A stretch of 64,000 nucleotides of DNA. It comes from Planctomycetota bacterium (lineage in GTDB: Bacteria > Planctomycetota > Phycisphaerae > WQYP01). A model generated the notes under the pieces. The model saw only the letters and a program-made list of their open reading frames with translations. It was not told where the DNA came from and ran no database searches. The stretch spans positions 6,542-70,541 of the forward strand of contig JAKAEZ010000005.1 in NCBI GenBank assembly GCA_021819825.1, read 5' to 3'. Both the position numbers and the translations under genes were made by a program. Shown here in pieces: positions 976 to 11,388 of the stretch (position 1 is the first letter of the stretch; the number at the start of each line of letters is the position of its first letter).

Positions 976-1095
976 TGTAAATAACACCGGATCACGGGAA
1001 TTAGGCACCCAACGCATCAACCATCTCACGGGCAAACGCTACCACGCGGCCAATGCGTTCACGCCCGATAAGATCGCCGCGGCAAGGAACAAACC

Positions 1096-1293
1096 ATGCA
1101 AACCATCGCAACGACCTATTGCACACAATGCGGATACCTGTACTACGGAGAAGACCGCAAGGCAGCAATCAAGGCCAACATCAACCACGGAAGACAGCCC
1201 CAAAACAACAGCCACACCATCGTTACAGAAATCGCCCGCAAGGACCCAACCCGAGAACTCAAACCGATCACAATATTGTCCGCAAACCCCTGA
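1096..1293 (+). CDS. Small CxxC...H...H putative zinc-binding protein (paralog group with 9283-9483 and 9480-9686)
   Basis: 65 aa, ...TYCTQCGYLYYGEDRKAAIKANINHGRQPQNNSH... It has the same CxxC-(18-19 aa)-His-cluster layout as the two tandem mini-proteins downstream of the secretin-like gene. Confidence 0.5.
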   Translation: MQTIATTYCTQCGYLYYGEDRKAAIKANINHGRQPQNNSHTIVTEIARKDPTRELKPITILSANP

Positions 1294-1339
1294 ACAAAAC
1301 GGACCGACCAACAACCACGGGCACCTATTTTACAAGTGA

Positions 1340-1666
1340 ATGGAACCCAAGATGATGACCTATTGCATAAGAGGAAACGTCACCAACACCAAACGATGGA
1401 TGGACAAAGAAGGAACGCCCGGAACACTCGTTACCATCAGAGACGACAACCAGACCATGACCATCGCAACGACCAACGCACCACCAGAAATAGGCGACTT
1501 AATCGAAGCAATAGGCGGCCTGCGCGTAAAAAGCTACAAGGGATACACAAACACCGTCTTAACCCGGGCAACCATCCAAATTCTCATACCAGCAAAACAA
1601 TCCGAAACCGAAGGCGGAGAAACCCCGGCAACGCGCCGGGAACCGACCCAAGGACGGACAAATTAA
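1340..1666 (+). CDS. Hypothetical phage protein (ssDNA-binding role possible by position and size only)
   Basis: 108-aa ORF in the only frame with ordinary amino-acid composition. It lies just upstream of rep, where inoviruses keep small DNA-binding proteins. No motif recognised. Confidence 0.4.
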   Translation: MEPKMMTYCIRGNVTNTKRWMDKEGTPGTLVTIRDDNQTMTIATTNAPPEIGDLIEAIGGLRVKSYKGYTNTVLTRATIQILIPAKQSETEGGETPATRREPTQGRTN

Positions 1667-1678
1667 GGAGCCAGGACA

Positions 1679-1966
1679 ATGGCATCAGAGTACACATACC
1701 ACGGAATCCTGCAGGGAATCAAACCGGCCCTCGACTACAAGGGAAACCCGGAACCCGACTGCCAAGAGGTCATCATCAAGATCGACAGCGGCTTAGCCAC
1801 CGGCAGGGCAACCGGCGACTTCCCAGACATCGCGAAACACTTCGGCAAGGAAATCCGGTTAACCGGCCCAATCACCGTGAAATACTCCGAAAAGATGCGC
1901 AGAGCCTTTACGGACCTCGGCCCCGGCAAAATCACCGCCGCAACCAACCCCGGAAACCTCAAATAA
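1679..1966 (+). CDS. Hypothetical phage protein
   Basis: 95-aa ORF with an AAGGAG Shine-Dalgarno sequence 8 nt upstream of the ATG. Composition looks globular. No motif recognised. Confidence 0.5.
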   Translation: MASEYTYHGILQGIKPALDYKGNPEPDCQEVIIKIDSGLATGRATGDFPDIAKHFGKEIRLTGPITVKYSEKMRRAFTDLGPGKITAATNPGNLK

Positions 1967-1982
1967 GAAAACCTTTTCAAAC

Positions 1983-2038
1983 GGGGCCGGGCGAACGGCC
2001 GACGCGTCTCATAAACCCAGGCCAAGTACCCCGGCCCC
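1983..2038. other. GC-rich long-range hairpin upstream of rep (candidate origin or packaging signal)
   Basis: GGGGCCGGG (1983-1991) pairs with CCCGGCCCC (2030-2038). The loop contains the palindrome GACGCGTC. It is a conspicuous G-containing island in an otherwise G/T-poor strand, in the 90-nt gap before the rep ATG. Confidence 0.3.
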
Positions 2039-2056
2039 TAAGTAAAAAGAGACCAA

Positions 2057-3376
2057 ATGTACGTAGACAACCCACAACCCGAAACTGAAAAGCCGACCAC
2101 GCTATGGCGCGGAATCGACACGATCAAAATCGGCATCGGAGGAACCAACACCAACACCGCCCTACCCACACTACGCGAACTACAAGAACAAGTCCGGCAA
2201 TCCCCAGCCCAGTACCAATACGACTTAGCCGGCAAAGTATGGGCAATCCTCCCATACGGACGCAAAAAATACCGATACGGCCTGCAACACGGGCAACTAA
2301 GCCTATTCTTTTCCGAGGAAGAATACTCCCCGGAAACACCGAACATAATGGCCGAGGCCTACCCGTCCGCGATCGCCGGACGGAACGTACACGAACTGCA
2401 AAACGACATAAACATAGCCCTCGCAGAACTCGGAGTAGATCCCAACTGGACAAAAGTATCCGAACTACACCTAACCACCGATACACACGCCCCGGACAAA
2501 CTGGCCATCACCGACATCTACGACACCAACCACAACCCGCTATGGATCAGCAAGGCACGCAAAGTACAAGCAATCACGGACCACCAGCAGGACGTAGAAC
2601 GGCTAATAACACGCGGGGCAACCCTGCAAAGCCTCAGATACGGCGGATCACTGCTGCACGTCCGAATCTACAACAAGCAGGAGGAACTCAAAATACACCC
2701 CGACAAGCAATGGGAAATGACCCTATGGAACAACCCCTACGCGCAACACGTAACGCGCGTAGAATTCCAAATCCGCAGGGAAAAACTGAAATGCTTCCGC
2801 GTAGACGGAACCCAGAACCTACCAGGACAAATAGCAGGAATCTGGAAATACCTAACCGAGGAATGGTTCACATTAAACGAACGCAACCCCAACGGAAAGA
2901 ACCGCGACGCCACCCCATCCAAATTCTGGGAAACTGTACAAGGCGCATGGAAAACCGCAACACCACGGAAACCATACCCGAAGCCACAAGCCAACGCGGC
3001 CCAACGGCTTTCCCAAGCCTACGGAAACCTAATATCGGCCGCCGCCATACTGGACATGCACCAAGAGGCCCAGATAACCGACCTATTCAACTTATGGAAA
3101 CAAACCCACGGACAAGACTGGCCGGAACACGTCCGCCAACGCCAGGACAAAATACAAACGCTGCAAGGCAGGATACGCATCAGAGATCAAGCCCTCGAAC
3201 TCGAATTCGAGGAACACAATCGCGCACCGACTACCCCCATACTCGAAAAAACCAATGAAAATAAGCCCGAAATATCGCTATTTGCGCACTTAGAAGGGGG
3301 GATGCTATTAACCATCCCCAAAGCAGGCGGCGGCGTCTGCGCCGCCGCCGCCGCCAATGCCCAATGGGAAAGATAA
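2057..3376 (+). CDS. Rolling-circle replication initiator, Rep_trans (RstA/pII-like) family
   Basis: 439 aa. ...SLLHVRIYNKQEELK... resembles the R-x-Y-[DN]-K motif of Rep_trans proteins (pT181 RepC, CTXphi RstA). Size and position fit a filamentous-phage initiator. Confidence 0.7.
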   Translation: MYVDNPQPETEKPTTLWRGIDTIKIGIGGTNTNTALPTLRELQEQVRQSPAQYQYDLAGKVWAILPYGRKKYRYGLQHGQLSLFFSEEEYSPETPNIMAEAYPSAIAGRNVHELQNDINIALAELGVDPNWTKVSELHLTTDTHAPDKLAITDIYDTNHNPLWISKARKVQAITDHQQDVERLITRGATLQSLRYGGSLLHVRIYNKQEELKIHPDKQWEMTLWNNPYAQHVTRVEFQIRREKLKCFRVDGTQNLPGQIAGIWKYLTEEWFTLNERNPNGKNRDATPSKFWETVQGAWKTATPRKPYPKPQANAAQRLSQAYGNLISAAAILDMHQEAQITDLFNLWKQTHGQDWPEHVRQRQDKIQTLQGRIRIRDQALELEFEEHNRAPTTPILEKTNENKPEISLFAHLEGGMLLTIPKAGGGVCAAAAANAQWER

Positions 3377-10375: not shown

Positions 10376-10530
10376 AACCCGCCATCCGATGGACGCTCAT
10401 AGTTGGATTAACGACCCTGCTAACGCTGGCCGCCGTCGCCGAGTACGAATACTTTGAAATGGCAATCAAGCCATACACCTTATGGGACAACTACCTGTAC
10501 AACCACATGCAGAACCACATCCCTTGGTAA
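10372..10530 (+). CDS. 52-aa membrane-anchored peptide
   Basis: MKPAIRWTLIVGLTTLLTLAAVAEYEYFEMAIKPYTLWDNYLYNHMQNHIPW. ATGA overlap with the TraX-like stop. Below the ORF-track size cutoff. Confidence 0.35.
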   Translation: MKPAIRWTLIVGLTTLLTLAAVAEYEYFEMAIKPYTLWDNYLYNHMQNHIPW

Positions 10531-10546
10531 ATGAAAGGATTTAACC

Positions 10547-10897
10547 ATGCCAAACTTATGGGGCGACTACACGACGGACGAAGCCGCAGACGAATGCGGA
10601 TACACCCACCGCAGCAATATCGTAAAACGCATCCACGCGCAGAAACAAGCCGCAACAACCGCCGAAACGGAACGCATAGTTTACGGCAGGAAATGGCGGT
10701 ACTGGATCAACCAAAAGGAACTCGAAGCCGCCATCAGTCTATGGCCCAAGTGGGCGAAAAAACGGAAGACGAAAGAGTTGCCCTCTGCGGGCGGGCAGCC
10801 CGCTTGCAGCTCTCTTCCCTGCAACCAGCCGGGCCACCCGCTTGACAAGCCCAGGACAAAAAAGCTAACATCTAAACCAAACAAACAAGCCCAGTGA
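10547..10897 (+). CDS. Helix-turn-helix DNA-binding protein (excisionase/HTH_17-like)
   Basis: YTTDEAADECGYTHRSNIVKRI...YGRKWRYWINQKELEAAI follows the MerR/excisionase-type HTH pattern. Basic Lys/Arg/Pro-rich tail. Confidence 0.5.
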   Translation: MPNLWGDYTTDEAADECGYTHRSNIVKRIHAQKQAATTAETERIVYGRKWRYWINQKELEAAISLWPKWAKKRKTKELPSAGGQPACSSLPCNQPGHPLDKPRTKKLTSKPNKQAQ

Positions 10898-10912
10898 CGA
10901 AAGGAAGAGACC

Positions 10913-11137
10913 ATGTACCGGATCACCGTGAACCAGCAGGCCCTACAGGCACTCCAGCACCACCCGATACTGTCAATCGCCCTGCTGATAGCCAGCGTAA
11001 CCGCCGTCAGACTCATCATACGCATCATCACCAACGCCGGACGGCCCGCAACCACACCGCCGAAACGCACCCGCCCAACCGAAACACTGCCAGGACAAAC
11101 AGCCCTGCACGCCCTTGAGAAAATGACCCGAAAATAG
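10913..11137 (+). CDS. Small single-pass membrane protein
   Basis: 74 aa with the TM segment ILSIALLIASVTAVRLIIRII and a basic Pro/Thr-rich tail. No motif recognised. Confidence 0.35.
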   Translation: MYRITVNQQALQALQHHPILSIALLIASVTAVRLIIRIITNAGRPATTPPKRTRPTETLPGQTALHALEKMTRK

Positions 11138-11155
11138 AAAAATAATTAAAGGACA

Positions 11156-11183
11156 TTGACACAGGAAGCCGACAAGATACAAT
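11156..11183 (+). promoter_or_regulatory. Sigma-70-type promoter for the RHH gene
   Basis: TTGACA (11156-11161), 16-nt spacer, TACAAT (11178-11183). The track ATG at 11182 lies inside the -10 element, which argues for the downstream start at 11206. Confidence 0.5.
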
Positions 11184-11205
11184 GACGCCAGGAAAGAGGT
11201 CACGG

Positions 11206-11388
11206 ATGATCACAACAACCGTAAAACTAAACCACATGCAACACGCGGCACTAAACGCCGTCGCTAACCACGAAACGCACGGAAACCTATCACACGCTAT
11301 CCGCGAAGCAATCGAATGGTATCTAAATACCACCCCGGACACAAGAAACGCCAAACGTCTTACCAATTCGCCAGAACATATATTATAG
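11206..11388 (+). CDS. Ribbon-helix-helix (CopG/Arc-like) regulator
   Basis: MITTTVKLNHMQHAALNAVANHETHGNLSHAIREAIEWYL shows the beta-strand/helix/helix pattern of RHH repressors. AAGAGG lies 6 nt upstream of ATG 11206. The last codons overlap the right-hand dif-like site. Confidence 0.55.
   Translation: MITTTVKLNHMQHAALNAVANHETHGNLSHAIREAIEWYLNTTPDTRNAKRLTNSPEHIL

Follow-up and report, generated by a model that had tools for sequence, protein, structure and literature searches.

The stretch of DNA analysed here (the window), 64,000 nucleotides of contig JAKAEZ010000005.1 from a Planctomycetota bacterium, carries an inovirus-like prophage, i.e. a filamentous phage with rolling-circle replication, integrated at the dif site of its host. 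The coding strand of this prophage is extremely rich in A and C and poor in T and G, and the skew is confirmed to lie far beyond chance, beyond the range of the host and beyond the inovirus diversity that was sampled. As an explanation we favour, with somewhat less than even confidence, a strand-asymmetric mutation pressure under which the antisense strand would be exposed as single-stranded DNA (ssDNA), most simply because it is displaced and packaged. More cautiously still, we hypothesize that the filamentous phages of this Planctomycetota clade encapsidate the complement of their coding strand and would thus represent the first negative-sense lineage of the Tubulavirales.

Strand composition of the prophage region

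Between positions 1000 and 11365 the + strand contains 3254 A, 3369 C, 2229 G and 1514 T (31.4/32.5/21.5/14.6%), whereas the remaining 52.6 kb of the window are near-even (12667 A, 14013 C, 13733 G and 12222 T). Per kb, AT skew in the region ranges from +0.23 to +0.50 and GC skew from -0.13 to -0.24; outside, both mostly stay below 0.1 in magnitude. An earlier note, made from the letters of this DNA alone, had described such a bias by eye; the recomputed counts and per-kb skews agree with it, and its two spot counts are exact (4561-4620: 26 A, 20 C, 9 G, 5 T; 9301-9360: 15 A, 24 C, 10 G, 11 T). The edges are sharp in 200-nt windows, with the skew setting in at ~1000 and ending at ~11400. They abut the 39-nt dif-like direct repeats at 946-984 and 11364-11402, where the note had also seen the bias stop, and this argues against a cause in the host context.

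The + strand of the prophage is 63.9% A+C, with a minimum of 0.621 among its 3-kb windows. The note had allowed for the case that the skew might fall within the range of flanking host genes once orientation is accounted for. However, host genes read on their own coding strands (n=30) have an A+C content of 0.484 +/- 0.024 with a maximum of 0.528 and an AT skew of at most +0.10, while open reading frames (ORFs) of the phage reach 0.61-0.67. At fourfold sites the phage uses A.312 C.434 G.201 T.052 and the host A.154 C.329 G.346 T.171, which amounts to a displacement on the sense strand from G to A (+.158/-.145) and from T to C (+.105/-.119) that barely moves GC content. A skew analysis by codon position, as the note had proposed, places the bias chiefly at synonymous sites, i.e. 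at third and fourfold codon positions; the skew also extends over transcribed non-ORF DNA. Third-position A+C is 0.79-0.83 in the replication module (1096-3376) and 0.62-0.81 in most other genes (3357-10897), and this excess of the replication module, which recurs in the related loci L002 and L211, is a step and not a gradient.

T scarcity affects stop codons, and the note had concluded that all three + frames stay open. This holds for the alternative frame that starts on the T-depleted third position (0.71 stops/100 codons) but not for the remaining one (4.71); the two ORF pairs given as examples (2057-3376/2104-3258 and 8105-9286/8353-9483) both involve the open alternative frame. That one + frame is artificially open might raise the suspicion that the true genes lie on the - strand and that long + ORFs arise merely from the lack of T. 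Such an artefact, of practically negligible probability, is rejected, as Zot (E 2e-12), TraX (E 3e-24) and a protein with Rep_trans fold are all encoded on +, together with all called genes of the relatives; proteins of the + frames are conserved in relatives down to 25-48% identity, and ORFs on the - strand are short and give junk of G/T-type codons.

For comparison, coding-strand A+C amounts to 0.448 in M13, 0.412 in Pf3, 0.392 in B5, 0.442 in Ralstonia phage 1 NP-2014, 0.507 in Pf1 and 0.498 in Cf1c. In addition, 182 IMG/VR loci related to pI of Pf1, Cf1c, B5 and M13 were collected, all oriented by pI. Their A+C is 0.39-0.555 for whole loci and at most 0.583 for any 3-kb window, and their AT skew stays at or below +0.08. 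With 0.639 the phage lies outside all 188 reference inovirus loci, and its bias is opposite in sign to that of known inoviruses, as the note had stated. The rarest synonymous base on the coding strand is A in 5 of the 6 reference phages and second-rarest, after G, in M13. Fourfold-site usage of B5 (A.045 C.296 G.427 T.232) is a near-exact complement of that of the phage. ssDNA phages have been described as favouring NNT codons, with genomic T of ~0.30, owing to C>T changes on the exposed strand (PMC3278643, PMC4032129).

Relatives and inheritance of the skew

Homologues of pI fall into 14 clusters, and DNA was recovered for 13 lineages. In 10 of them, spread over at least 4 pI subclades and with pI 44-98% identical to that of the window, the sense strand has an A+C content of 0.62-0.66, and T at fourfold sites of pI is as low as 0-2%. 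The four relatives that come from genome collections are all metagenome-assembled genomes of Planctomycetota. No relatives were found in IMG/VR, the closest deposited phage shares 26% identity in pI over half the protein, and in the main survey of inovirus diversity Planctomycetes and strand composition both go unmentioned. The element defines a previously undescribed, divergent family of dif-integrating inoviruses, and as far as the collections and literature searched show, these are the first inoviruses associated with Planctomycetota.

Related prophages, with dif sites examined in L027 and L028 among others, occur in both orientations relative to dif. The L027 prophage is inverted relative to dif and its sense strand is still A+C-rich, which excludes an effect of chromosomal replication. 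The position of the prophage at dif, where replication forks converge, and the co-orientation of all its genes might otherwise have pointed to a host cause, be it a replichore or terminus effect, an asymmetry coupled to transcription, or adaptation to host codon usage. Yet the host flanks are nearly without skew, the edges of the skew coincide sharply with the att sites, and transcription-associated bias makes the sense strand G+T-rich, opposite in sign to what the phage displays. Host codon adaptation by translational selection was rejected, given the very different fourfold-site usage of the host and a coat gene that is among the least skewed. A host cause is therefore rejected as highly improbable; the skew is a phage-intrinsic, inherited and maintained trait that is independent of the host.

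Three lineages depart from the pattern. L212 is A-rich only. L005 (3860-14420) lies within a skewed subclade and differs from it on the C/T axis alone, with C.19 and T.27 at fourfold sites against C ~.40 and T <=.07 in its sisters, and with A and G the same. L028 (3900-13100), the most distant relative, has a different Rep and the classical look of an ssDNA phage (fourfold T.34, G.12). L005 and L028 lack the full skew although they, too, reside in Planctomycetota hosts, which points to possible variation, within the family, in whatever determines the bias; no deaminase or other gene tracking the skew was found among the relatives.

Between the window strain and its sister L008 the host flanks differ by 1.3-1.7%, while the phage shows 4.4% difference where it aligns well and 9.8% at third positions, and so diverges 3-5 times faster. 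The skew has also altered protein composition: the ratio of residues with A/C-type to those with G/T-type codons in pI is 1.5-1.9 in the skewed lineages, 0.98 in L028 and 0.54-1.19 in the references.

Modules are shuffled among relatives. Replication proteins of L211 (3040-5388) are 85-100% identical to those of window positions 1096-3376, while its pI (9001-10092) is only 43% identical to the window pI. Some relatives carry an extra gene of ~540 amino acids (aa) between the assembly genes and TraX (L002 12846-14486; L214 6153-7763, with a DUF6311 match in the latter), and their prophages are accordingly longer (~14 kb in L002).

Substitution patterns: mutation or selection

Polarised substitutions were counted in the replication module, over 2.4 kb and among three lineages (window, L008 and L211) with ~10-13% divergence. 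The 333 polarised singleton changes are balanced between forward and reverse directions (T>C vs C>T, 21 vs 20; G>A vs A>G, 48 vs 39; A>C vs C>A, 71 vs 53); hence the skew is at equilibrium and is no decaying relic. Polarising within the L008 clade yielded only 10 events. At third positions (185 polarised changes; rates per 1000 sites, Fisher test), complementary channels differ strongly: G>A 241 vs C>T 30 (p=6e-10), T>C 375 vs A>G 113 (p=0.009), C>A 106 vs G>T 19 (p=0.004) and T>A 188 vs A>T 12 (p=0.003); the difference between C>G (76) and G>C (83) is not significant. C>T, A>G and G>T thus proceed 3-10 times faster when read on the antisense than on the sense strand. These are the classical lesions of single-stranded DNA, and the asymmetry appears in the channels that one would expect if, as the note had supposed, the strand complementary to the mRNA is the one that suffers such damage.

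These data suggest a mechanism in which the antisense strand gathers lesions typical of single strands, with deamination causing C>T and A>G and oxidation causing G>T. On the sense strand these would be read as G>A, T>C and C>A. The mutation pressure would belong to the replication cycle of the phage itself, and the A+C-rich sense strand would be its equilibrium product. While the asymmetry of the channels is observed, single-strandedness as its cause is what we infer. Support for exposed-strand mutation comes from the positive-sense reference phages, which are biased likewise on their coding strand, B5 being a near-complement of the phage.

The coat gene is informative in this context. It ranks with the least skewed genes, nearest to host usage, in each of the five lineages examined, with third-position A of.09-.26 (<.20 in 4 of 5 lineages) against.22-.47 in other genes. 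Presumably it is the most highly expressed gene, and its weak skew fits a mutation-driven bias opposed by translational selection.

An alternative is that the phage packages its positive-sense strand in the usual way and that the skew is selected, T and, less so, G being disfavoured on the sense strand. Possible reasons would be an advantage of unstructured A+C-rich virion ssDNA or mRNA, or the role of T/U as targets of nucleases or glycosylases. Indeed, no DNA in the window is less structured than the sense strand, whose folding energy per 150 nt is -15.0 kcal (antisense strand, -17.1; host, about -20); however, weak folding of both strands is predicted by composition alone and does not discriminate between the models. 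Symmetric mutation combined with a fitness of ~-3.5 for T and +0.5 for A reproduces the ratios G>A/C>T, T>C/A>G and C>A/G>T as well as C>G=G>C, and the skew of transcribed non-ORF DNA is in line with selection, too. On the other hand, avoidance of T predicts T>G as the commonest exit from T, which was found in 0 of 9 T changes (p ~0.01, small counts; this value and the fitness values are our own arithmetic on the third-position rates). The weakly skewed coat gene speaks against selection, as do L005, which shares the att site, and L028, both of which lack the trait in hosts of the same phylum, and its occurrence in 0 of the 188 reference inovirus loci. All in all, we consider selection unlikely, though worth keeping in view.

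Two specific versions of selection were rejected. Avoidance of thymine dimers caused by ultraviolet light fails because TT is not under-represented beyond base composition, with an odds ratio of 1.27 in the phage and 1.28 in the host. A model of plain preference for A and C predicted C>A = G>T and G>C >> C>G, and both predictions fail.

Positive-sense packaging might also be combined with unequal copying fidelity or repair, such that complementary-strand synthesis on the sense template is error-prone and sense-strand synthesis accurate. Seen on the sense strand, T.G mispairs would then yield T>C, G.T mispairs G>A, and 8-oxo-dGTP incorporated opposite A would yield A>C. This has the appeal that both transition biases follow from one class of mispairs, that A>C (167 per 1000 A sites) resembles a mutT-like signature requiring the sense strand as template, and that the skew stands at equilibrium and goes with the phage cycle. 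Yet the same two-step replication takes place in all inoviruses, and those characterised are T- or G-rich on the sense strand. In addition, the excess of C>A over G>T is left unexplained, L005 differs in skew although its Rep is homologous and its host belongs to that clade as well, and the element encodes no polymerase or repair gene that Pfam and PHROG scans would detect. We give this explanation little credence.

Several observations weigh against exposure of the antisense strand as well. At compositional equilibrium, asymmetric rates partly restate the skew and are no independent proof of its cause, and the polarised counts come from the 2.4 kb and three lineages given above, in a module that recombines. 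The commonest polarised change is A>C (antisense T>G), which is no classical ssDNA lesion, and A is more depleted than C on the putatively exposed strand, which would be unexpected if cytosine deamination dominates. The skew changes stepwise, being highest in the replication module, with no gradient from an origin. L005 is without the C>>T component although it shares the host clade and the att site and its Rep is 50% identical, and no inverted origin was detected in it. Finally, all inoviruses characterised are positive-sense, as demonstrated for phiOH3 by strand-specific blot (PMC4763002).

Candidate origin and putative displaced strand

The premise of rolling-circle replication holds, based on the Rep_trans fold of the initiator and on the circular relative L001 with its joined attP. 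Under exposure of the antisense strand, the Rep_trans initiator would nick this strand, probably at a conserved hairpin upstream of rep. The displaced antisense strand would stay single-stranded for a time and would then be extruded in the virion, which would make the phage a negative-sense inovirus. Displacement and packaging of the antisense strand are inferred from the mirror-image base usage and the spectrum of polarised changes, and the composition argues against positive-sense packaging without proving it.

The hairpin (1983-2038) is the best candidate for the double-strand origin, judging from its conservation and predicted fold. Its fold z-scores are -2.2 and -2.8, and its stem varies in a compensatory manner (window: GGGGCCGGG/CCCGGCCCC; L002: GGGCCCGGG/CCCGGGCCC; L001: GGAACCGGG/CCCGGTTCC), while the loop flanks GCGAAC and CAAGTAC are invariant. 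It is kept in the same orientation in the six lineages that have this Rep; L005, L028 and L212 contain no recognisable copy. An inversion of the origin between skewed and non-skewed relatives was considered and rejected, as no inverted homology or origin-like element was found in L005 or L028.

The nic site of the Rep_trans/MOBT superfamily (PMC9371924) sits in the loop of a GC-rich hairpin and reads CT'AA. In the phage hairpin, CTAA is not consistent on either strand. The antisense GTACTTG is only loosely similar to TACTCT'AA of pT181, and in 4 of 6 lineages CCCTA(A/T/C) is found on the sense strand shortly after the 3' side of the stem. Hence, the nicked strand is not readable from nic-site homology, and a negative polarity is proposed on the grounds of composition and substitutions.

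Integration at dif

attL and attR form a 39-nt direct repeat (D5), and its 17-mer core AACATATATTATNGGAC occurs nowhere else in the window. The repeats bear out the note's view of an inovirus-like prophage bounded by dif-like sites. The host-side att arms are the same in five relatives, the left site adjoins the host asd gene in L002, L005, L008 and L026, and the host dif may be reconstructed as AATTTAACATA-ACATAT-ATTATAGGAC. L001 is a circularly permuted contig of 10.44 kb whose ends meet inside rep; it contains a joined attP at ~8817, between homologues of the right-end and left-end genes. A joined attP in a permuted contig indicates a circular or tandem form of the phage. Of the dif elements, the XerC arm and the central region are preserved in the attP, while its XerD arm is non-canonical, as in TLC- or VGJ-type elements.

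An attP of CTX type consists of two inverted dif-like sites that form an ssDNA hairpin, and such a hairpin would have revealed the polarity. This type was rejected, since neither the window nor the circular L001 contains an inverted second copy. Pfam scans of 20 ORFs gave no recombinase or integrase domain at E<=0.01; a 13.8-bit trace of Arm-DNA-bind_4 fell on an ORF of 66 aa.

Genes and anatomy of the prophage

The features are listed in Table 1. With 10.4 kb between the att sites and all genes on +, the element has the compact layout of Tubulavirales genomes (5-15 kb, circular, with co-oriented modules). Identical copies of the prophage are carried by L016 and L017.

Table 1. Features of the prophage and its integration sites (positions in the window).
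Feature	Position	Strand	Basis or description
attL, dif-like	946-984		host-type XerD arm AATTTAACATA, central region and XerC arm ACATATATTATCGGAC, flanking bases
Prophage body	985-11363	+	10.4 kb, every gene on +
Three small conserved ORFs of the replication module	1096-1293, 1340-1666, 1679-1966	+	gene calls in L017
Conserved GC-clamped hairpin, candidate double-strand origin	1983-2038		GGGGCCGGG...CCCGGCCCC, just upstream of rep
Rep_trans-type rolling-circle replication initiator, 439 aa	2057-3376	+	fold and weak Pfam match
22-nt inverted repeat flanking the coat gene	3837-3858 and 4274-4295		CTAAGCCGG in each arm
Candidate major coat protein, 111 aa	3875-4210	+	layout from translation; position kept in relatives
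pIII-like large virion/adsorption protein, 735-768 aa	4413-6620	+	size and position as pIII
pVI-like small membrane protein	6617-6985	+	position only; gene calls; homologues in L001 and L002
pI/Zot morphogenesis ATPase	7090-8292	+	Pfam Zot E=2.1e-12; PHROG Zot-like, protein I of M13
Conserved 347-aa protein downstream of pI	8243-9286	+	in all relatives, 25-68% identity
TraX-family protein	9686-10375	+	Pfam TraX E=2.7e-24; PHROG 'transfer protein'
Small ribbon-helix-helix-like ORF, 68 aa, crossing attR	11182-11388	+	gene call
attR, dif-like	11364-11402		phage-derived non-canonical XerD-side arm ACCAATTCGCCAGA, central region, host XerC arm ACATATATTATAGGAC

The hallmark gene of inoviruses, pI/Zot, is present with a Pfam match above the curated cut-off. 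The Pfam match to TraX recurs in L001, L002, L005, L008, L211 and L214, and the 347-aa protein between these two genes has no Pfam match.

For the initiator, the Pfam Rep_trans score is below threshold in 4 of 6 members of the Rep family, while the homologue P0030 has a precomputed match to PF02486. An alignment-based AlphaFold model (pLDDT ~90 over residues 10-300) matches RepSTK1 (4CIJ) and RepDE (4CWC, 4CWE) with E ~1e-10 and probability 1.0, and on the basis of this model the protein is the rolling-circle initiator that is expected in a member of the Tubulavirales. A sequence search of the PDB with Rep profiles gave no match, and neither did an Rfam search. The most stable folds of the phage include an adjacent GGC/GCC-rich inverted repeat (3326-3355; GGCGGCGGCGTCTGC/GCCGCCGCCGCCGCC), located where rep ends on its 3' side.

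The three small ORFs of the replication module have homologues in L001, L002, L026 and L211 (tblastn), no Pfam or PHROG match, and a third-position A+C of 0.80-0.83. The second of them (1340-1666) occupies the position expected for the gene of an ssDNA-binding protein.

In the candidate coat protein, a signal-peptide-like N-terminus is followed by a hydrophobic core and then by a basic C-terminus (...WWAWHRLKGAVS); no hidden Markov model of Pfam or PHROG matches its ORF. The inverted repeat around it is restricted to the window and the L008 lineage. Its CTAAGCCGG copies (3844, 4288) lie one per strand and are similar to a Rep_trans nic site, and both mismatches of the repeat are A.C in the sense strand, which corresponds to G.T in its complement.

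Homologues of the pIII-like protein are found in every relative (27-48% identity). Its hypervariable segment (~4500-6000) is 15-34% divergent from L008, whereas the host flanks differ by only ~1.5%, a pattern that suggests diversification of a putative receptor-binding domain.

The small ORF at the right end crosses attR, so its C-terminus depends on integration, and it has homologues in skewed and non-skewed relatives alike. A Pfam match of this ORF to APOBEC1 (E 2.8e-4) was dismissed as spurious, as there is no Cys and no HxE motif.

Comparison with known phages and other systems

Filamentous phages are the textbook case of positive-sense ssDNA viruses, and their T-rich codon usage is a standard example of mutation pressure on the exposed strand. 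We know of no bacterial filamentous phage of negative-sense polarity, and none was found in the literature searched. A mirror image of the usual signature would mean either that polarity is not fixed in the group, or that some unknown force overcomes cytosine deamination on the packaged strand. As the element shows, composition by itself can flag candidate changes of polarity in metagenomic ssDNA viruses.

The element resembles the Tubulavirales (Inoviridae and Paulinoviridae; M13, Pf3, Cf1c, B5) in its pI/Zot ATPase, its coat-like and pIII-like genes, its rolling-circle initiator, and its co-oriented compact genome of ~10 kb with a circular form. Cf1c has a TraX-like gene downstream of pI/Zot as well, and B5 has a bias of equal size at synonymous sites. 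However, the sign of the bias is reversed here, the rarest synonymous base being T and not A, and the hosts are Planctomycetota.

Integrative mobile elements exploiting Xer recombination (IMEX), of the CTXphi, VGJphi and TLCphi types, are comparable with respect to dif-like direct repeats next to a bona fide host dif, the lack of a detected integrase domain in the prophage, and an attP that retains the XerC arm and the central region. The present attP differs from the CTXphi type in being single and double-stranded with a non-canonical XerD arm, and is nearer to the TLC or VGJ type. A further difference is that the relatives include both orientations of the prophage with respect to dif. Rep_trans plasmids of the pT181 family and MOBT relaxases share the fold of the initiator and a GC-rich hairpin adjoining rep, whereas the nick motif of pT181, CTACTCT'AATAGCCGG, lies within rep and on the rep-sense strand.

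Vertebrate mitochondrial DNA offers a parallel in composition. Its A+C-rich L strand carries most gene sense, and its G+T-rich H strand is exposed in replication. As in the phage, A and C prevail on the sense strand and G and T on the template, fourfold sites carry the strongest bias, and amino-acid composition is shifted; the same explanation, deamination of the strand left single-stranded, may apply. In mitochondrial DNA, however, C is the most depleted base of the exposed strand, whereas on the putatively exposed strand of the phage it is A (5%), and the phage shows no positional gradient from an origin. With respect to polarity, counterparts are negative-sense ssDNA viruses of eukaryotes (Anelloviridae and many Parvoviridae), which encapsidate the strand complementary to their mRNA, as we propose for the phage, although their genes and virions are unrelated to it.

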